A DNA stretch of 64,000 nucleotides from a phage: the sequence record PZ452594.1; one strand, given 5' to 3'. Every line of letters begins with the position of its first letter. Within the stretch, counting starts at the first letter, position 1. The notes under the pieces were generated by a model. It was not told where the DNA came from. It saw only the letters and a program-made list of their open reading frames with translations, and made no database searches. The translations under genes were made by a program, and so were the position numbers. This document shows positions 1,574 to 41,499 of the stretch, in pieces.

Positions 1574-2898
1574 TTGATTTCCTCTAAATCTTTGGCGTAT
1601 TCTGTAACTACATCAGTAGTTTTCCAATATTCGTTTTCTTCTTTTTTAGCTTTAGCTTCTTCAGCAAGTTTCTTCGCTTCATCGGAAGTCATATGAAAAA
1701 TATTCATTCCAACTAGTTTATCAACATAAGAAGAATACATATCGATTTTCGAAAGTTCTTCGGTCAGTTCTTTACGAGTTTTACCCTGTACAACAATTTC
1801 ACCTGAAATTACTTTCTTAATGAAATGTGCCTTGGCAAAGGCTAAACGAAAAGCTGACTCAGTTTCTTTAATTTTGTTATCAATTCGTTTTTGAACATAA
1901 GTTTTACGAACTTCAACAAAGTCTTTAATTAAATCAACTACGTTATCGTAAACTTGTAGTTTTCCTTTCTCATTAATGACGGTAATATTCTGAGAACGAC
2001 GCTCAATCAACCCGAAGTCTTTCATAATTTTTGCATGGCGTTCTTCTTCGTTATCGCTCAAAGAATATTCTTTACGGAATTTAACTTTGAACCCAAAACC
2101 ATGCTCACCACAAGCATCATCCCACGTAATGAAGCCTTTATCTTCAAGTGGGTCTAAGATTTTACTCACATAAGTTTCACGATCATACTTATACGGAATC
2201 TCAGTGATATGCATTTGAGTTCGTGAAGTAAACTTATATGTTCCACGAATTTCATATTGCCCATCAATTTCAACGACTTCACCACGAAATTCTGGGAATT
2301 CTACCTTCGGTTTAGTTACTTTCTTTCCTTGAAGAGCTTGTAATACAGCTTTCTTAACAGAAGAAACACTATGAGGAAGAATGTAAGTTGCATAACCAGT
2401 TGCAATACCGGAAACGCCATTAAGAAGAACAGTAGGAATAATAGGCAAATAGAAAGCAGGCGGAATGTGTTCTTTATCTTGATGTACCGGAGCATATTCA
2501 GTATCTTTATATACGTTATAGAAATTTTTACTTACACGAGCAAAAATATAACGACTTGCTGCTGCTTTTTGGACGGTACGAGAACCAAAGTTTCCTTGAC
2601 CATCTAACAGAGGAAAGTTATTATTCCAAGTGTTAGCCATCAAAGCACCTGCGTCTTGCGCAGAGTTTTCACCATGATGATATCCAAGGTCCGCTACACC
2701 GCCTGCGATAGAAGCGAGTTTGTGAAACTTATCTTTATTTCCTCGTGCCAAATCAAGAGCTCGAGCAATAACAAATCGTTGAACTGGCTTAAATCCATCA
2801 ATCATATTTGGAATGGCACGATTTTCAACCGTGTACATAGCATAAGCCAATGCTTCATTATCAATGATACTTTTTAAATCGCGATTATTCAGTTGCAT
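1570..2898 (-). CDS. 52: DNA topoisomerase II medium subunit gp52 (442 aa)
   Basis: MQLNNRDLKSIIDNEALAYAMYTVENRAIP... recognised as T4 gp52 (GyrA-like cleavage-religation subunit). Confidence 0.93.
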   Translation of the reverse strand: MQLNNRDLKSIIDNEALAYAMYTVENRAIPNMIDGFKPVQRFVIARALDLARGNKDKFHKLASIAGGVADLGYHHGENSAQDAGALMANTWNNNFPLLDGQGNFGSRTVQKAAASRYIFARVSKNFYNVYKDTEYAPVHQDKEHIPPAFYLPIIPTVLLNGVSGIATGYATYILPHSVSSVKKAVLQALQGKKVTKPKVEFPEFRGEVVEIDGQYEIRGTYKFTSRTQMHITEIPYKYDRETYVSKILDPLEDKGFITWDDACGEHGFGFKVKFRKEYSLSDNEEERHAKIMKDFGLIERRSQNITVINEKGKLQVYDNVVDLIKDFVEVRKTYVQKRIDNKIKETESAFRLAFAKAHFIKKVISGEIVVQGKTRKELTEELSKIDMYSSYVDKLVGMNIFHMTSDEAKKLAEEAKAKKEENEYWKTTDVVTEYAKDLEEIK

Positions 2899-2902
2899 AA
2901 AT

Positions 2903-3043
2903 TTACCATACTAGTGAATGTAGTGCCATAATAACATCAGAAATGAAAAGCACGACTTGAATTAATCCGAACATTACTCCATAATATAGTGCTATTAATA
3001 AAATAGCAAGGGCTAATGAATAGCCCAAGATTTTCTTAATCAT
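2903..3043 (-). CDS. small hydrophobic peptide (46 aa)
   Basis: Hand-translated MIKKILGYSLALAILLIALYYGVMFGLIQVVLFISDVIMALHSLVW; immediately upstream of gene 52. Confidence 0.4.
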   Translation of the reverse strand: MIKKILGYSLALAILLIALYYGVMFGLIQVVLFISDVIMALHSLVW

Positions 3044-3191
3044 TAGATAACAACACAAATGTTAAATATGCACACATACCCTGAGCTAAAGCTTGCGAAA
3101 ACACACTGCTGGCATCAATACAGATAGTTAAAACACATGCTACTATCCAACAAATAAATGAAATAACTCCTAATAATTTTGCAATATTCAT
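3036..3191 (-). CDS. small hydrophobic peptide (51 aa), ac-like by position and size
   Basis: Hand-translated MNIAKLLGVISFICWIVACVLTICIDASSVFSQALAQGMCAYLTFVLLSND; T4 has the 51-codon ac gene in this neighbourhood (from memory). Confidence 0.4.
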   Translation of the reverse strand: MNIAKLLGVISFICWIVACVLTICIDASSVFSQALAQGMCAYLTFVLLSND

Positions 3192-3278
3192 ATTTTCCTC
3201 ACTGGCGTCCGAAGACGCCTTTAGTTTTAAAATTATTACGATAGAACTGCATCACATGTTCGTTATGGAAATTACTCA

Positions 3279-3737
3279 TTAATATGCCTGCAAAACAAAT
3301 TTAAAGTTATCAGCCAACATACGGTTCATTTCTTCAAGTGTTTGATACTCAGAATGATGATTACGAGTAAACGCCAAAGCTAACTGACCTTTACCAAATC
3401 CTGTCGTCAGAGGTTTCATCTTAGAAGCAGGCAGATAAAATACTGTGTATGGAACATTGTTATTTGCAATAGTACGTGCAAGCTGAGACCGACGTTGACG
3501 AATATGACTTAGAACTGCACTGAATCCTTGCTTAGAACGCTGATTACCTACATAAAATCGTGCAGACACACATGGATTACTAAATGGACGACCATCTAAT
3601 TTACTTACTAAAAAGTAAAATCCAGGTTTAGATAAAATATCTTTATGCGGAGTTCCCAAAAACCATTCACCACCCTTGATTGTACCAATAACGGTAGCGC
3701 CCGCATTATTCAGATCAGTAACAGTCATGTATTTCAT
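3279..3737 (-). CDS. ndd: Ndd nucleoid-disruption protein (~152 aa)
   Basis: [35 protein letters not shown]... recognised as T4 Ndd; start moved to internal ATG with SD AGAGGA (track ORF 3279-3785 begins at a non-ATG codon). Confidence 0.8.
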
Positions 3738-4128: not shown

Positions 4129-4326
4129 TCATTTTACACCATTCCAAATTGTTTCAATCACGGATTTTAAACCATTTTGATGAATATCAATTCCGACAAC
4201 TGCCATCAAATAGATTCCAACTACAACTGAACCCAAGGCGAAAATCAGCATGAAAATGAATAAAGCCGGAAAAATATTATCGAAAAACCATTCAATAAAT
4301 GTAAAAGCACTGCGTTTACGCTTCAT
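4129..4326 (-). CDS. small membrane protein (~65 aa)
   Basis: ORF track 4129-4347; start moved to ATG with SD GAGGAAAAT; hydrophobic core IFPALFIFMLIFALGSVVVGIYLMAVV. Confidence 0.5.
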   Translation of the reverse strand: MKRKRSAFTFIEWFFDNIFPALFIFMLIFALGSVVVGIYLMAVVGIDIHQNGLKSVIETIWNGVK

Positions 4327-4333
4327 ATTTTCC

Positions 4334-4447
4334 TCACATAAATCCAAAGTAAACGTTTAATACATCAATCATTAAAACGATTGGGAATATACTCAAAACT
4401 ATTAGTATTATAACTACATTCCATATAGCTTTAACAATCTTTTTCAT
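4334..4447 (-). CDS. small membrane peptide (37 aa)
   Basis: MKKIVKAIWNVVIILIVLSIFPIVLMIDVLNVYFGFM preceded by SD GGAGGAACAG; C-terminal part of track ORF 4334-4582. Confidence 0.45.
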   Translation of the reverse strand: MKKIVKAIWNVVIILIVLSIFPIVLMIDVLNVYFGFM

Positions 4448-4475
4448 TTTCTGTTCCTCCGTAGTTGATAGGGTA

Positions 4476-4505
4476 ATAGTACTACGGAGGAACAGTCTTG
4501 TAAAC
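4476..4505 (-). promoter_or_regulatory. T4-type early promoter flanked by a 14-bp inverted repeat
   Basis: GTTTAC (rc 4500-4505), 18-nt spacer, -10 TACTAT (rc 4476-4481); inverted repeat ctgttcctccgtag / ctacggaggaacag spans the -10 and the downstream SD. Confidence 0.45.
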
Positions 4506-4754
4506 AACTTTTTTAAAAATATTCGTAATAAATGTGAATACCAATCACTACTGCCGAAACCTGTGCAACCCACCACGCACAAGCAATAAGTACAGAATTC
4601 AAAATTTTCATAATAACCTCATCACAAAAGTAAATGTTAAACAAATTACTGGAATACTAATTAACCAAACAAAACACCACCATAATGAACTCATAGTTCA
4701 ATCTCAGCGATTTTCATTTTATTCTCCAAATCTGTATCAGTAGTTGATAGTTGT

Positions 4755-4784
4755 ATAGTACCACGGTCCTTGTGGTATGTAAAC
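4755..4784 (-). promoter_or_regulatory. T4-type early promoter
   Basis: GTTTAC (rc 4779-4784), 18-nt spacer, TACTAT (rc 4755-4760); directly downstream of denB stop. Confidence 0.4.
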
Positions 4785-4799
4785 CATTTTGTGAAATTT

Positions 4800-5357
4800 T
4801 TAAATGGAAAGATACCATCCGTTGTAGTTGCTTTTTCTTACAACCTTACGAAGGTCTTCTCTGTCACCGATGAACTTCGGAGTGTACTGGATGACACCTG
4901 GATGAATTTCTTTAGTGTTGAATATAATTATACAGTCAGCGACTTGATGATTCAGAATGGGCCCTAGATTTATTCCAGAACCGTATGGATACTCTCCGCT
5001 GCATCCGGTTGTTACCGAAATCCATCGTGAGTCAGTTTGATGTGTTTTGACTTCTACACGAAGCCCACAGTATTTTGGATGCGCCAATACATCCCATGCA
5101 TATGTATATGGGTCATTAACATCCTCTTGGCCTTTGTTAACATACCCGCTTAGCCAATCTGCTACAAAAAATTCTGCGTACACAGCGATACGACATCTTT
5201 CAATAACTTCTGCTTTATCCTGGTTCGGGTTTTGTTTTAAAGAGTATCTTGCTGTATCAGCAATTTTGGCCTTCATTTCACTAGTCAAGTCACTGTTCGA
5301 TAGGGTAAATGTCGGAATCTGAAATAGTCTCTGCAAACCCGGATTCGTTTTCTGCAT
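4800..5357 (-). CDS. denB: endonuclease IV DenB (185 aa)
   Basis: 185-aa product, position between rIIB and ndd, sequence recognised as T4 DenB. Confidence 0.85.
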   Translation of the reverse strand: MQKTNPGLQRLFQIPTFTLSNSDLTSEMKAKIADTARYSLKQNPNQDKAEVIERCRIAVYAEFFVADWLSGYVNKGQEDVNDPYTYAWDVLAHPKYCGLRVEVKTHQTDSRWISVTTGCSGEYPYGSGINLGPILNHQVADCIIIFNTKEIHPGVIQYTPKFIGDREDLRKVVRKSNYNGWYLSI

Positions 5358-37483: not shown

Positions 37484-39166
37484 TTAAACCATTACAGTAA
37501 ATCGACCAACTTTCTTCATTTGAAGATGCTGACCATATTCTTGCGGGTCATGGTCTTTATGTGAAATTATAAAAACATTAGTGTTTTTCATTGAATTTAT
37601 AATATTAGCTACACCTTTAATACCTTCGGCATCAAATGACCCATCAAACACTTCATCGAGTATTAATGTACTAATACTAACACCAGATACAATAGAAGCA
37701 ATATCACGCCAAGTAAATAAAAGAGCAATATCAATTCGTGCCTTTTCACCTTCACTAAATGAAGCATAACTAAAATCTTCACGACCACGGGATTTAATTG
37801 TCTCATTAAATTCTTCATCTAATGTAAACACATAATCCGCTTCCATTATTTTAAGATAATGGTTAATCTGCTTATTAAATAATGGAATGTACTTTTTAAT
37901 AATAGCACCTTTAATACCAGAATCTTTGAGCATATCAGTCAAAATTCCTCGGTGGTATTTTTCCATTACTAAATTAGTTTTTGTCTTAACAATTTTATCA
38001 AGTTCTTCTTGAAGCAGTGCTATTTCATCGGCATGGTCAATAAACTCAGATGATGCTTTTTCTATAGCCGCTTTAACCTTTTTAGCTTTATCTACCGTCG
38101 TGATTAGAGATTGCTTTTTATTGCGAATATCATTTGCCAACGACTGTTGGGTTTTAATATTATCTCGGTATTCATCAACAAGAACTTTTAAATTATCACG
38201 ATGTGTTGAAAGCTGTTCAAATGAATGTGTGCATTCAGAAACTTTATCTTTAATTTTAGAAACAACTTTATCACCGGAACTTAATTGTGACAAACAGGTT
38301 GGGCATAATCCACCTTCGTGATACATATTAATGACTTTATTATACGAGTCAATTTTTGATTTAATTAAAACTGCTTCTTGACCGATTTTATTAAATGCAT
38401 CAGTCGGATCTTCGTCTAAAACAATATTAACTAATCTTTCATTAGCTTCTTCTATTTCCGATTTTAGCGTTCTAGCTTCTTTTGCCAAATCATCATACAT
38501 ATTCTGCAAACGAGTAAGATTGTCACCCGTTAATTTTTTCTGGCGTTCAACGTTATCATTATATATTTTAATTTGTTGGATAATACTATCTTTTTTAACA
38601 TCAAGCACTTGGTTTTGTGAATTTAATTCACGTATTAGTGCTTTATTAAGCTTATCCATTTCAGCTAATGTTCCTACCTCGAGCAGGTCTTCCACAAGCT
38701 TTCTTCGCGCAGGGGTCGACAAACCCATGAAAGGGGTATACCCTGCTGTACCAAGGACAACAATCTGCTTGAAACTGGCATATGACATTCCGATAAGCTG
38801 TTCAAATTCTGCTTGGAAATCTTTACTGCTGGCAGATTCATTAAGACGTGTACCGTTAACGGTGATTTCGAAAACGTTTGGTTTTTGTCCTCTTTTGATA
38901 TAGTACTTTTTCTCATCATATTCCATCCACAGTTCAACTAAAAGTTCTTTCTTATTTGTGCTGTTTATTAATTGACCTTTCTTTACATCACGAAATGGCT
39001 TACCAAAAAGCCCAAATGTGATGGCTTCTAACATAGTAGACTTACCACCGCCATTTCGTCCAGTAATAAGAGTTTTTTGAACCTTATCTAATTGAATGTC
39101 AACTCCATTTTGACCAACTGACATTATATTTTTATATTTTACTCTATTAAGTTTAAATGATTTCAT
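37484..39166 (-). CDS. 46: recombination endonuclease subunit gp46 (Rad50/SbcC-like, 560 aa)
   Basis: Walker A GRNGGGKST, central coiled coil with CPTC zinc hook, C-terminal signature/Walker B; recognised as T4 gp46. Confidence 0.93.
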   Translation of the reverse strand: MKSFKLNRVKYKNIMSVGQNGVDIQLDKVQKTLITGRNGGGKSTMLEAITFGLFGKPFRDVKKGQLINSTNKKELLVELWMEYDEKKYYIKRGQKPNVFEITVNGTRLNESASSKDFQAEFEQLIGMSYASFKQIVVLGTAGYTPFMGLSTPARRKLVEDLLEVGTLAEMDKLNKALIRELNSQNQVLDVKKDSIIQQIKIYNDNVERQKKLTGDNLTRLQNMYDDLAKEARTLKSEIEEANERLVNIVLDEDPTDAFNKIGQEAVLIKSKIDSYNKVINMYHEGGLCPTCLSQLSSGDKVVSKIKDKVSECTHSFEQLSTHRDNLKVLVDEYRDNIKTQQSLANDIRNKKQSLITTVDKAKKVKAAIEKASSEFIDHADEIALLQEELDKIVKTKTNLVMEKYHRGILTDMLKDSGIKGAIIKKYIPLFNKQINHYLKIMEADYVFTLDEEFNETIKSRGREDFSYASFSEGEKARIDIALLFTWRDIASIVSGVSISTLILDEVFDGSFDAEGIKGVANIINSMKNTNVFIISHKDHDPQEYGQHLQMKKVGRFTVMV

Positions 39167-39181
39167 TTTGTATCCAATTGT

Positions 39182-40036
39182 TCACAATGAAGAAAATTCT
39201 TTAACTAAAGCCTGTAATGAAGCCTCTATTGGATATCCATTCTTAACTAACATTTTCCTAAACATTACATGTTTAGGACGATTATATGATATCCACAATT
39301 CATACAATTTATCTTTATTATCCCAATGATAGCCTTTTCGTCGAGATGCTATATGAGCTTTTCTAATCTCCGGATTTTTCCAACTAGCAGCTACTGAATT
39401 TGATATAGCTATTTTATATTCAGGTTTTGATAAAGCAGCACGAACAGCCTTTTGGTGTTTAATTTTATTTTCTTCGTTATTAAACCATTCCCTTGAAGCC
39501 ATTGAAATTTTTTGTTTTGTTTTAAAATTATTTAATCTTTCTTTATTATCTTTCCTATTTTTTGCTACTGAAAAATATTTTAATGCCCTTTCTCTAGCAG
39601 CATTTCTATTTTGCGGATTTGAATAATACTGTTGAAGCCTTTTTGATATTGTGTCACTTACATCTTGTTTTATAAAACTATATTCAGCAGCTATTAAATC
39701 AACTTCGGCTAAAGATAAATTTTTATATGTTTTTCCTGACATCATTCTATTTAAAGCATTTAACATTTTTCCATTTTTACCTTTTGCTAATAAGAAGTGT
39801 GCTTTAAAATGATTAAAATGACTTAAATTAACTAAATTCCATGTAGATTTTAAATATTCAGGAAATATTGATTTAGGAAGCACGTGGTGTGCTTCCGTTT
39901 TACCTGGAGTTTTAACAGTTGAATTCACAGAAATAAAATTAATGTAAGACTTGGCGTCTTCTTCACTCAACGCTAATTTTTCAACTAATTCCTTTATTAA
40001 AAATTCATCATTAATGTCAAGTTTAAAATTCTTCAC
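39182..40036 (-). CDS. HNH-family homing endonuclease-like protein (284 aa)
   Basis: HNH motif EAHHVLPKS...NLVNLSHFNHFKAH; basic C-terminal region; GTG start; lies between 46 and 47. Confidence 0.6.
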   Translation of the reverse strand: MKNFKLDINDEFLIKELVEKLALSEEDAKSYINFISVNSTVKTPGKTEAHHVLPKSIFPEYLKSTWNLVNLSHFNHFKAHFLLAKGKNGKMLNALNRMMSGKTYKNLSLAEVDLIAAEYSFIKQDVSDTISKRLQQYYSNPQNRNAARERALKYFSVAKNRKDNKERLNNFKTKQKISMASREWFNNEENKIKHQKAVRAALSKPEYKIAISNSVAASWKNPEIRKAHIASRRKGYHWDNKDKLYELWISYNRPKHVMFRKMLVKNGYPIEASLQALVKEFSSL

Positions 40037-40248
40037 AAAAGATTCCTTTTAATGTATCTTTTAGACCATTCTATCATATCATCATAATCTAAAAAGTATT
40101 CATCAAATTCAGCCATGCAAACAACACCTTGTGCTGTTTTTGATGTAATATAAATTATTCCAACATATCTAGAATCTTCTTCGGTATAATCAATGTTTGC
40201 TATGAATTCATCATTAATGTCAAATGTCGAAAACTTCACAGTATGCAT
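40033..40248 (-). CDS. hypothetical protein (~71 aa)
   Basis: Track ORF 40033-40296; start moved to ATG (MHTVKFSTFDINDEF...). Confidence 0.4.
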   Translation of the reverse strand: MHTVKFSTFDINDEFIANIDYTEEDSRYVGIIYITSKTAQGVVCMAEFDEYFLDYDDMIEWSKRYIKRNLL

Positions 40249-40483
40249 CCTTAATACAAGATACAGCCATATCTCGTAATGATTTAGGTGTGTCATTATC
40301 TAAAATGTTGAAGTTAAAAGATACAGCCCAGTCAGTGCAGACCGTGACCTTTTTAATACAATTATCTTCAACCTCTAACGGTTCAAACCAATATTCAATA
40401 ATTTCTTTATGCCCAATATCATCTTTTACTTCGCATTCAAAATGCTGACTCATCATAACATTTTTAAATTCATCAAAAGTCAT
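40220..40483 (-). CDS. hypothetical protein (87 aa)
   Basis: ORF track; ATGA overlap with gene 47 stop. Confidence 0.45.
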   Translation of the reverse strand: MTFDEFKNVMMSQHFECEVKDDIGHKEIIEYWFEPLEVEDNCIKKVTVCTDWAVSFNFNILDNDTPKSLRDMAVSCIKDAYCEVFDI

Positions 40484-41499
40484 TGTGTTGCCTCTACATA
40501 TAACTGATTTGCATATTGAATAAGTGCTTCACGGTCAGAATCAGTGATGTCTGGAATTGCATTAATGTATTCTTCCATCAACGTCTGAAGCGATTGAACT
40601 TCAACTTCTTCACTGTCATCTGACTCGACAGAGTTATCAATCTTTGACACAACTCGTAACGAATGCACAACTTTTTCTAGTTCAGATTCGAACTTCGTCA
40701 GATTTTTGTCTACTTCAGTTACTATAACACGTACTGATAGATTTGTAAAATCTTTATAGTCAATTTTTCCTTTAAATGGATAATGAATTCTACGGTGCCA
40801 GGTAGTGTTGTTTGGAATAAATTCCATTCGTTCTGTTTCTGTATCAAACATCCAGAACCCGCGAGGGTCATTCTCGTCACCTGCTGTTAGTGTCCATGGT
40901 GTCCCAATATATCTGACGTTTGCAGCCTCAGAAATAGTATGGAAGTGACCAGACCACACTTCTTTATAAGTCTTAAGGAAATCAGGTTCAAGACCGTGAG
41001 ATTTCATTCCTTTATAAAAATAAAATCCATTCAGTTCCCAGTGACCAACACAAAAAGAAGCAGATGAAGTTTTGATGTGTTCAAGAATTTCACCAGTATT
41101 TTCTTCGCACATCCAAGGAATTAAATCAATCAAACATCCGTCAAAATCTACTGTAGTAGGCTTATCATATACTTTAACATTGGGATATTTAGCCAAAAGC
41201 TCAGTAGAGGCATTTGGAGTTAAAGTATTTTTAAAGTGCATATCATGGTTTCCTACAACAGTATGTAGGGTAATACCAGCATCATCAAGCATTTGAACTA
41301 TTTCACGAGCAAACTCCATAGTTTTATGCGTGATTGCTTTTCGCACATCAAAAATATCGCCGTATTGAATCCAGGTAGTAATTCCATTTTTCTTAGAATA
41401 TTCTATTGCTTGTTTAATTCCATCCAACTGAATAGATTGAACCCACTCATCATCGGCTTTAACGCCTAAATGCCAATCACCTAAATTTAAAATTTTCAT
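40480..41499 (-). CDS. 47: recombination endonuclease subunit gp47 (Mre11/SbcD-like, 339 aa)
   Basis: Phosphoesterase motifs LNLGDWHLG, GNHD, GHFH; recognised as T4 gp47. Confidence 0.93.
   Translation of the reverse strand: MKILNLGDWHLGVKADDEWVQSIQLDGIKQAIEYSKKNGITTWIQYGDIFDVRKAITHKTMEFAREIVQMLDDAGITLHTVVGNHDMHFKNTLTPNASTELLAKYPNVKVYDKPTTVDFDGCLIDLIPWMCEENTGEILEHIKTSSASFCVGHWELNGFYFYKGMKSHGLEPDFLKTYKEVWSGHFHTISEAANVRYIGTPWTLTAGDENDPRGFWMFDTETERMEFIPNNTTWHRRIHYPFKGKIDYKDFTNLSVRVIVTEVDKNLTKFESELEKVVHSLRVVSKIDNSVESDDSEEVEVQSLQTLMEEYINAIPDITDSDREALIQYANQLYVEATQ

Follow-up and report, generated by a model that had tools for sequence, protein, structure and literature searches.

How can a selfish gene settle inside an essential gene without splitting it? 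The question is raised by a 64,000-nucleotide (nt) stretch of phage DNA from sequence record PZ452594.1 (the window, by which we always mean this whole stretch), a segment of a T-even (Tequatrovirus) phage in which an open reading frame (ORF) for a predicted HNH homing endonuclease lies in the 5′ end of gene 46, the gene for the recombination nuclease subunit gp46. One way, this locus indicates, is to take the start signal of the target gene and to bring a replacement. Here, we describe how the ORF is inserted and which part of gene 46 goes with it in two phage genera, and we propose that it is probably a functional, or recently functional, homing endonuclease gene of the Mob type.

Anatomy of the insertion in gene 46

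An earlier note on this DNA, made from its letters alone, had placed a 284-residue ORF with a GTG start between genes 46 and 47. The ORF is there exactly as described, at positions 39182-40036 on the minus strand, and it adjoins gene 46; its other neighbour, however, is gene 46.1 rather than gene 47 (Table 1). Comparison of the 46-47 junction with that of relatives lacking the insert, T4 among them, places the insertion point within gene 46, after codon 6. In T4, the empty site at the boundary between 46.1 and 46 reads AAAAGGAATCTTTTGTGAAGAATTTTAAACTT up to the junction and AATAGAGTAAAATAT beyond it, with AATAGAG to the right of the junction. The window has the same 18 nt to AAACTT, followed by 870 base pairs (bp) that end in ATGAAATCATTTAAACTT, after which AATAGAGTAAAATAT resumes. 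The boundaries of the insert slide by 9 bp because a direct repeat, TTTAAACTT, stands at both ends, and the junctions are identical in all seven carriers examined (the window, PP01, T6, N2, T2, RB68 and G2133).

The endonuclease gene starts with GTG because the GTG, the Shine-Dalgarno sequence and the first six codons are gene 46's own. That GTG, already noticed in the earlier note, is the sole canonical start upstream of the conserved N-terminal helices, follows its AAGGAA Shine-Dalgarno sequence at a distance of 6 nt, and overlaps the stop codon of 46.1 as GTGA; for the T4 gene, GenBank M10160 gives the annotation ‘exonuclease g46 (gtg start codon)’. What the insert takes it also replaces, in that its new ATG and codons 2-6 restore a full-length gp46 of 560 residues, and the native and substitute start stretches are identical at 13 of 18 nt. 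The ORF is free-standing: it ends in its own stop codon, a TGA 15 nt before the new gene 46 ATG, and a protein-splicing architecture is therefore excluded. Neither a group I or group II intron model nor any other RNA family in Rfam matches positions 38800-40500, and scans for sigma-70 promoters and for terminators return nothing above shuffled expectation.

The arrangement also bears on the annotation of gene 46, which in RB10, fPS-90, RB27, DalCa and GEP001 is recorded from an internal ATG at codon 15 (1641 nt); the native GTG and Shine-Dalgarno sequence are fully conserved despite these records. Since the cassette carries its own ATG-started, full-length 5′ end of gene 46, the 14 N-terminal residues of gp46 are probably real, and the GTG start of gene 46, overlooked in many phage records, is supported.

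Two further features lie inside the ORF. On the minus strand at about 39413-39437, a MotA-box-like TGCTTTA stands 12 nt ahead of a TATAAA; purely a pattern match, it could, by analogy with other T4 endonuclease cassettes, be a T4 middle promoter feeding gene 46. At 39876-39896, on the same strand and thus in the mRNA, an 8-bp hairpin (GGAAGCAC / GUGCUUCC; free energy -13.6 kcal/mol, z -4.4 against shuffles) sits exactly on the codons of the catalytic EAHHVLP motif, with no U-run on the sense strand. It recalls RNA structures reported from within mobE and segF. Conservation does not extend to the Gelderlandvirus relative described below, and the hairpin may be a by-product of the E-A-H/H-V-L codons.

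A patch of gene 46 that accompanies the element

Gene 46 itself differs immediately beside the insert. We aligned 1.5 kb on each side of the insertion point in seven carriers and seven non-carriers. Against the common empty-site allele, codons 7-22 of all carriers examined form a patch with 14 substitutions in 48 bp, most of them synonymous, the linked differences starting at the third base of codon 6. This patch perfectly separates all carriers, together with T4 and SHBML-50-1 (the A type), from RB10, fPS-90, RB27, DalCa and GEP001 (the B type). Among the 14 genomes, no other polymorphism within 1.5 kb on either side is linked to carriage, the flanks being a mosaic unrelated to it, and the last 107 nt of 46.1 are invariant in 14 of 14.

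A second genus holds a related endonuclease at the same site. The closest relative of the ORF protein, with 44% identity, is encoded by the Gelderlandviruses LG358_1, SEA1, CF-SP2 and Melville (in the last of these, a Salmonella phage, annotated as ‘MobD-like homing endonuclease’) and is missing from at least seven other Gelderlandviruses. Like the window ORF, its gene targets the start of gene 46, is sporadic in its genus and is accompanied by a divergent patch of gene 46 (codons 3-21). Unlike the window ORF, it is not fused to codons of gene 46 but has its own N-terminus and an ATG overlapping the stop codon of gene 47; at the 3′ end it overlaps the ATG of gene 46, where the window has a spacer, and the final 12 nt of gene 47 also carry a few changes that come with it. 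The 47/46 junction of Gelderlandviruses occurs in three states, a direct overlap of 47 and 46 with a GTG start (STML-198), a small 46.1-like ORF (S16, 1674-1796) followed by an ATG-started gene 46, and the endonuclease (Melville), so that gene 46 starts with GTG or with ATG according to its context.

Comparison of gene 46 nt 10-66 within and between the two genera suggests where the patch belongs. In Tequatrovirus, carrier and B alleles are 75% identical over this segment and 99% over the rest of the gene; in Gelderlandvirus, carrier and empty alleles are 56-61% identical, and 95-99% over the rest. Across genera, empty alleles are 70-75% identical to one another, against a background of 70%, whereas carriers reach 82% and share 24 of 24 nt in one run (TTTAAACTTAATAGAGTAAAATAT). 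Since the A patches cluster with the endonuclease and the B alleles lie at background, the patch goes with the endonuclease gene rather than with the genome that harbours it; the B alleles of empty sites look native, and the A patch seems to have come in with the cassette. By analogy, it resembles either fixed co-conversion of the flanking target or an immunity allele (PMC2988022). T4, which has the native GTG AAG AAT followed by the A patch to about +44 and no endonuclease gene, stands at roughly even chances of carrying a footprint of the element, which could have been left by a precise deletion between the TTTAAACTT repeats or by a conversion tract that stopped short.

Presence of the gene at this position in all relatives would, by the earlier note, have spoken against its reading. 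The gene is instead sporadic among close relatives and absent from T4. The insert occurs at 98.4-100% identity in 71 phage records, T2, T6, RB51, RB68 and PP01 among them, whose hosts are E. coli, Shigella, Citrobacter, Salmonella and Hafnia. A junction probe finds 75-81 carriers among roughly 560 related records (about 14%), with some 359 empty sites of the B type, as in RB10, and 64-68 of the T4-like A type; these counts are taken from BLAST bands in a redundant database that holds many T4 re-sequencings and GenBank/RefSeq duplicates, and base-by-base inspection covered 14 Tequatrovirus and four Gelderlandvirus loci. A search of IMG/VR viral contigs did not find related loci.

Several copies are decaying independently. 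The T2 copy is frameshifted by a 2-nt deletion at codons 203/204, that of RB51 and RB68 by a 1-nt deletion at codon 175, and that of G2133 by a 7-nt duplication at codon 90, and the MLP2 copy shows a one-base length difference. Intact copies (the window, PP01, T6 and N2) differ by 12 synonymous and four non-synonymous changes, and a match length of 888 nt in 53 of the 60 listed carrier records indicates that most keep the full 855-nt frame. Constraint where a copy is active and decay elsewhere, in a gene so unevenly distributed, would be the usual signature of a homing endonuclease.

The endonuclease protein and the neighbouring genes

The ORF is not a chance reading frame, since its protein matches PHROG 655 (‘homing endonuclease’) over its whole length (E 7.8e-45), since a deep profile search of 1.8 billion cluster representatives returns 15,462 relatives at E<=1e-3, and since synonymous changes exceed non-synonymous ones among its copies. 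It also matches PHROG 12434 (‘HNH endonuclease’; E 4e-15). In a tblastn search of 50,697 phage records, the nearest T4 paralog is MobD, at 30% identity over query residues 47-281 (83% of the query; E 3e-11), and weaker matches fall in records annotated as mobE or Mob-like. With MobD as nearest T4 paralog, a sporadic distribution and no copy in T4, a free-standing HNH homing endonuclease of the T-even mob type, as the earlier note had proposed, is the best reading of this gene.

Both motifs from which the HNH domain had been called are present: EAHHVLPKS is residues 48-56 and NLVNLSHFNHFKAH residues 67-80. In an alignment of 77 diverse relatives Y31, H50, H51, P54, N67, H76 and H80 are invariant, and H50, H51, N67, H76 and H80, which match the catalytic and metal-binding His and Asn positions of HNH (beta-beta-alpha-metal) nucleases, are invariant also in a 41-sequence alignment of the N-domain. 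The Pfam families matched among the 77 relatives are NUMOD3 (36 of 77), HNH PF01844 (6 of 77), HNH_5 (3 of 77) and I-HmuI_NUMOD-like (6 of 77). Relatives with the canonical ‘HHIxP..GG.D...N’ spacing match PF01844 exactly on the segment aligned to H50-H80, in one case above the gathering score (25.6 bits, cut-off 21.4). AlphaFold2 (AF2) models the whole chain with a predicted local distance difference test (pLDDT) score of 94.6, and residues 1-108 modelled separately score 92.1; strands 47-51 (TEAHH) and 68-72 (LVNLS) and helix 73-84 are predicted to form a beta-beta-alpha unit with pLDDT >90.

The C-terminal half is basic, as the earlier note had said, with 36 lysines and arginines against 18 aspartates and glutamates in residues 111-284 (isoelectric point (pI) 10.0; 9.9 for the whole protein). 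In the AF2 model, the C-terminal 175 residues are a run of short helices, and residues 130-235 (pI 10.8) contain about six helices of 15-17 residues with N-P-x-x-R/K-type caps. An N-terminal HNH core (47-84) and basic helical repeats (130-235) together make up the architecture of a Mob-type enzyme.

Database searches with the protein itself speak less clearly for an HNH enzyme. It matches no HNH family in Pfam (E<=1) or NCBIfam and no NUMOD family, NUMOD3 included, in either; the single-protein search of PDB sequences (phmmer) finds nothing significant, and the 77-sequence family profile matches the HNH region of McrA in the PDB only weakly (E 0.27). Against HNH homing enzymes of solved structure, neither sequence nor fold gives a significant direct match. 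Escape from Pfam seems to be due to ‘SIFPEY...W’, which stands in place of the usual Gly-Gly loop between the strands. The HNH call thus finds no family hit on this protein, an outcome that the earlier note had named as speaking against it, and stands instead on the invariant residues, the PF01844 matches of relatives, PHROG 12434 and the predicted beta-beta-alpha fold; HNH membership appears well supported by motif, predicted topology and transitive homology, without a direct profile match or a strong fold match. Other candidates raised in these searches were set aside: sub-threshold matches to putAbiC and MUG113 (Pfam/NCBIfam) were dismissed as chance, an amidohydrolase at E 1.7 (phmmer against the PDB) was judged spurious, and the remaining PDB matches of the family profile are coiled-coil and designed-protein noise.

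Table 1. Features at the gene 46 locus (positions are those of the window)
Feature	Position	Strand	Basis
Homing endonuclease ORF, 284 residues, GTG start, TGA stop	39182..40036	-	ORF call, PHROG, tblastn
HNH catalytic core, residues 47-84	39785..39898	-	Invariant residues, AF2
Basic helical repeat region, residues 130-235, presumed DNA-binding, NUMOD3-like	39332..39649	-	AF2, pI, NUMOD3 in relatives
Helical tail at the C-terminus (residues 236-284), perhaps a small DNA-binding module of helix-turn-helix-like type	39182..39331	-	
Insert relative to the T4 empty site, 870 bp	39149..40018	-	
First six ORF codons (GTGAAGAATTTTAAACTT, MKNFKL), the native gene 46 start, identical to that of T4	40019..40036	-	
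AAGGAA Shine-Dalgarno sequence within the 3′ end of 46.1, native gene 46 ribosome-binding site, now that of the endonuclease	40043..40048	-	
Spacer of 15 nt on the insert (ACAATTGGATACAAA), including a weak ribosome-binding site (GGA) for the new gene 46 start	39167..39181	-	
Substitute gene 46 start on the insert (ATGAAATCATTTAAACTT, MKSFKL)	39149..39166	-	
Element-linked patch of gene 46, codons 7-22	39101..39148	-	Alignment of carriers and non-carriers
Gene 46, Rad50/SbcC-like recombination nuclease subunit, with the element in its 5′ end	37484..39166	-	
Gene 46.1 (DUF5487), upstream neighbour of the ORF	40033..40296	-	
Gene 47	40480-41499		

The genes of this part of the window lie on the minus strand in the order 44, 45, rpbA, 45.2, 46, endonuclease ORF, 46.1, 46.2, 47, 47.1, a-gt, and its best 24-kb matches to deposited phages are 96.4-96.6% (RB51, RB68, T2), none being identical. 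Because relatives carry endonuclease genes in several of its slots, the region from 44 to a-gt is a hot spot for such insertions. In RB68 (1269-1982) and N2 (121-837), the plus strand encodes an additional HNH or homing endonuclease, unrelated to the first, between gene 45.2 and the gene 46 3′ end; their gene 46, flanked on both sides by endonuclease genes, is 6 nt longer, and the window lacks this second gene. It also lacks the endonuclease genes that relatives carry between 47 and a-gt (replacing 47.1) or between 45 and rpbA and the mobB that follows a-gt in T4; these neighbouring-slot genes lie at 4227-4850 in fPS-90, 4302-4850 in GEP001, 1-464 in SHBML-50-1 and from 6886 in T4. Farther away, a 35%-identical paralog (P0003/KK4 group) lies in UFV-AREG1 at 2492-3331, between nrdD and nrdG and overlapping both, in the slot that mobC or segH occupies in other phages.

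Proposed mechanism and relation to known endonucleases

We propose that the promoter-less cassette, placed after codon 6 of gene 46, would be transcribed with the 47-46.2-46.1-46 unit, and that the endonuclease would be translated from gene 46's GTG and Shine-Dalgarno sequence, coupled to the stop codon of 46.1. The spacer and the new ATG with codons 2-6, at the 3′ end of the cassette, would allow full-length gp46 still to be made. In a mixed infection, the enzyme would nick or cut the 5′ region of gene 46 in a cassette-free phage, most likely in the widespread, native B allele and no more than about 50 bp from the point of insertion; recombinational repair off the carrier genome would then transfer the cassette and, with it, some 22 codons from the beginning of gene 46. 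Self-cleavage of the carrier would be prevented by the 14 differing positions of 48 combined with the interruption of the site by the insert. From sequence, we infer that the enzyme is catalytically active and homes at the gene 46 locus, where, as the earlier note had suggested, it may also mediate marker exclusion. That B is the allele cut is, within this model, a somewhat better than even proposition; we favour it because the A patch behaves as imported, carrier-specific sequence and because no other linked polymorphism lies within 1.5 kb. The gene invaded may itself have a part in the process, since a list of exonuclease functions that may take part in resection during homing includes gp46 (PMC2988022). 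The element rewrites the N-terminus of this Rad50-like protein.

A wider reading, to which we give slightly less than even chances, is that the mobile unit is a composite cassette, in which six captured codons and the HNH gene are joined to a new ATG with its ribosome-binding site and to a foreign, self-immune stretch of gene 46 (codons 1 to about 22). Such a unit would belong to an old lineage, which would have entered two or more genera of Tevenvirinae at one and the same position and overwritten the N-terminus of gp46; the patch of laboratory T4 would then be what a lost copy, or an incomplete conversion, had left behind. If so, T4 should be either immune or uniquely sensitive to the enzyme of T6 and PP01.

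Several points weigh against an active homing endonuclease that cuts the B allele. Our literature search found no report of cleavage or inheritance for this enzyme, and the frameshifts in several copies mean that the element is not under selection everywhere. The linked patch adjoins the insertion point, whereas the cleavage sites of the known free-standing endonucleases of T4 usually lie hundreds of bp from the gene (PMC2988022). If the target does lie within about 50 bp of the insertion, the enzyme would by analogy behave more like intron-encoded endonucleases than like Seg enzymes. The 24-nt identity between carrier patches of two genera, finally, could mean that the patch itself is the recognition sequence.

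This last point belongs to an alternative in which the element and enzyme are the same and the substrate is the uninterrupted, T4-type A site (GTGAAGAATTTTAAACTT joined to AATAGAGTAAAATAT); the carrier would be immune through its split site, and B would be a resistant variant, explaining a plateau at about 14% of records. The two flanks of the insert, when joined, give exactly the T4-type empty site; identity of 24 nt beside genes whose enzymes are just 44% identical would be expected of a recognised sequence, and decay of several copies if few sensitive sites remain. HNH intron endonucleases such as I-HmuI, moreover, recognise mostly the downstream flank. The allele comparison points the other way: the B alleles of the two genera differ at background level (70-75% against 70%), the A patches are outliers within their own genera (75% and 56-61% against 95-99%), and no A-type empty site was seen in Gelderlandvirus, where alignments cover 55-56% of the query and 58% would be expected with the patch. 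Our own first reading, that B is an escape variant of an ancestral A site, was downgraded since B lies at background divergence and the A patches go with the endonuclease; for the same reason we take B as native and A as imported rather than B as a fast-evolving escape, and we regard cutting of the A site as unlikely.

The frameshifts, at least three and perhaps four of them independent, would also suit a decaying or inactive relic that no longer moves, its 71 records reflecting descent and ordinary Tequatrovirus recombination, as would the low frequency of the element and a protein that departs from the canonical HNH profile far enough to escape Pfam. Yet most copies (53 of 60 listed records) keep the full frame, none of the five catalytic-motif residues is lost, and the ratio of 12 synonymous to four non-synonymous changes in intact copies points to purifying selection. 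Carrier genomes are, moreover, mosaic in both flanks beyond the patch, so the cassette has moved between backgrounds many times, and we consider a relic improbable. Least credible to us is that the gene has been co-opted for a phage function, as a regulator or partner of gp46/gp47 or as a marker-exclusion weapon without spread of its own. Translation from the gene 46 initiation region within the 47-46 operon would tie its dose to that of the recombination nuclease, and competition and marker-exclusion effects of such enzymes are noted in a review (PMC2988022); against this, the gene is missing from the great majority of Tequatrovirus records, is dispensable, being frameshifted in the viable laboratory phages T2 and RB51/RB68, and shows no sequence sign of interaction with gp46 or gp47.

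We thus return to a homing endonuclease of the Mob type, which is a new member of the T4 Mob family at a locus absent from T4's fifteen endonuclease genes (Table 1 of PMC2988022). The existence of the element is already known, since RefSeq labels it ‘homing endonuclease’ in several phages. Our literature search returned a general review of T4 mobile elements (PMC2988022) and no paper on an endonuclease at the 46/46.1 site; not described in the literature searched are the in-frame capture of a start together with a substitute start, a patch shared by two genera, and a possible footprint in T4. T-even phages are the reference system for free-standing homing endonucleases, and most Mob enzymes, MobD included, are without a known target. 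Comparative sequence here assigns a relative of MobD to one specific site, some 50 bp long, where gene 46 begins; for this site the RB10-type, T4-type and carrier junctions are natural candidates for sensitive and immune alleles. Classical phages offer both intact copies (T6, PP01) and frameshifted ones (T2, RB51/RB68), and cleavage specificity, self-immunity and 46/47 marker exclusion are directly testable with existing strains.

Compared with known systems, the ORF shares most with the Mob enzymes. T4 mob and seg genes are promoter-less cassettes that overlap an upstream ORF and co-convert their flanks (PMC2988022). With MobD, the window protein shares homology over 83% of its length and, as with MobA-MobE more generally, an N-terminal HNH domain and a presumed C-terminal DNA-binding region. 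Its gene, like other T4 mob genes, is a promoter-less cassette in an existing transcription unit, has a start that overlaps an upstream stop codon, and is sporadic among T-evens (PMC2988022). MobD, for which Table 1 of PMC2988022 gives neither a demonstrated activity nor a known target, lies at nrdC.11/mobD.1 rather than at the 5′ end of gene 46; unlike MobD, the window ORF is fused in frame to six codons of its target gene, uses that gene's GTG and Shine-Dalgarno sequence, and belongs to a cassette that carries a substitute start for the target. For MobE (nrdA/nrdB; also mobE of Aeh1), an HNH enzyme of the Mob family, nicking of the target and preferential inheritance have both been demonstrated; translational coupling is suggested by the overlap of its start with the stop codon of the upstream ORF (UAAUGA), and RNA structure lies inside its coding region (PMC2988022). 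The GTGA overlap and strong internal hairpin of the window ORF are MobE-like, but MobE is intergenic and targets nrdB at a distance, whereas the window insertion lies inside a coding sequence with its linked polymorphisms immediately adjacent.

Beyond the Mob family, I-HmuI and I-HmuII, intron-encoded HNH nicking enzymes of the Bacillus phages SPO1 and SP82, likewise combine an HNH with NUMOD-type extended DNA-binding modules, and by analogy nicking chemistry would be expected here (PMC2988022); unlike theirs, the window locus has no intron. SegF and SegG, known from intronless homing and T2/T4 marker exclusion, are alike in being free-standing genes with co-conversion of neighbouring essential-gene sequence, and the gene 46 patch looks like a fixed co-conversion or immunity tract. 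The Seg enzymes, however, are GIY-YIG rather than HNH endonucleases and cut hundreds of bp away, whereas the patch linked to the window ORF ends 46 bp from the insertion point.

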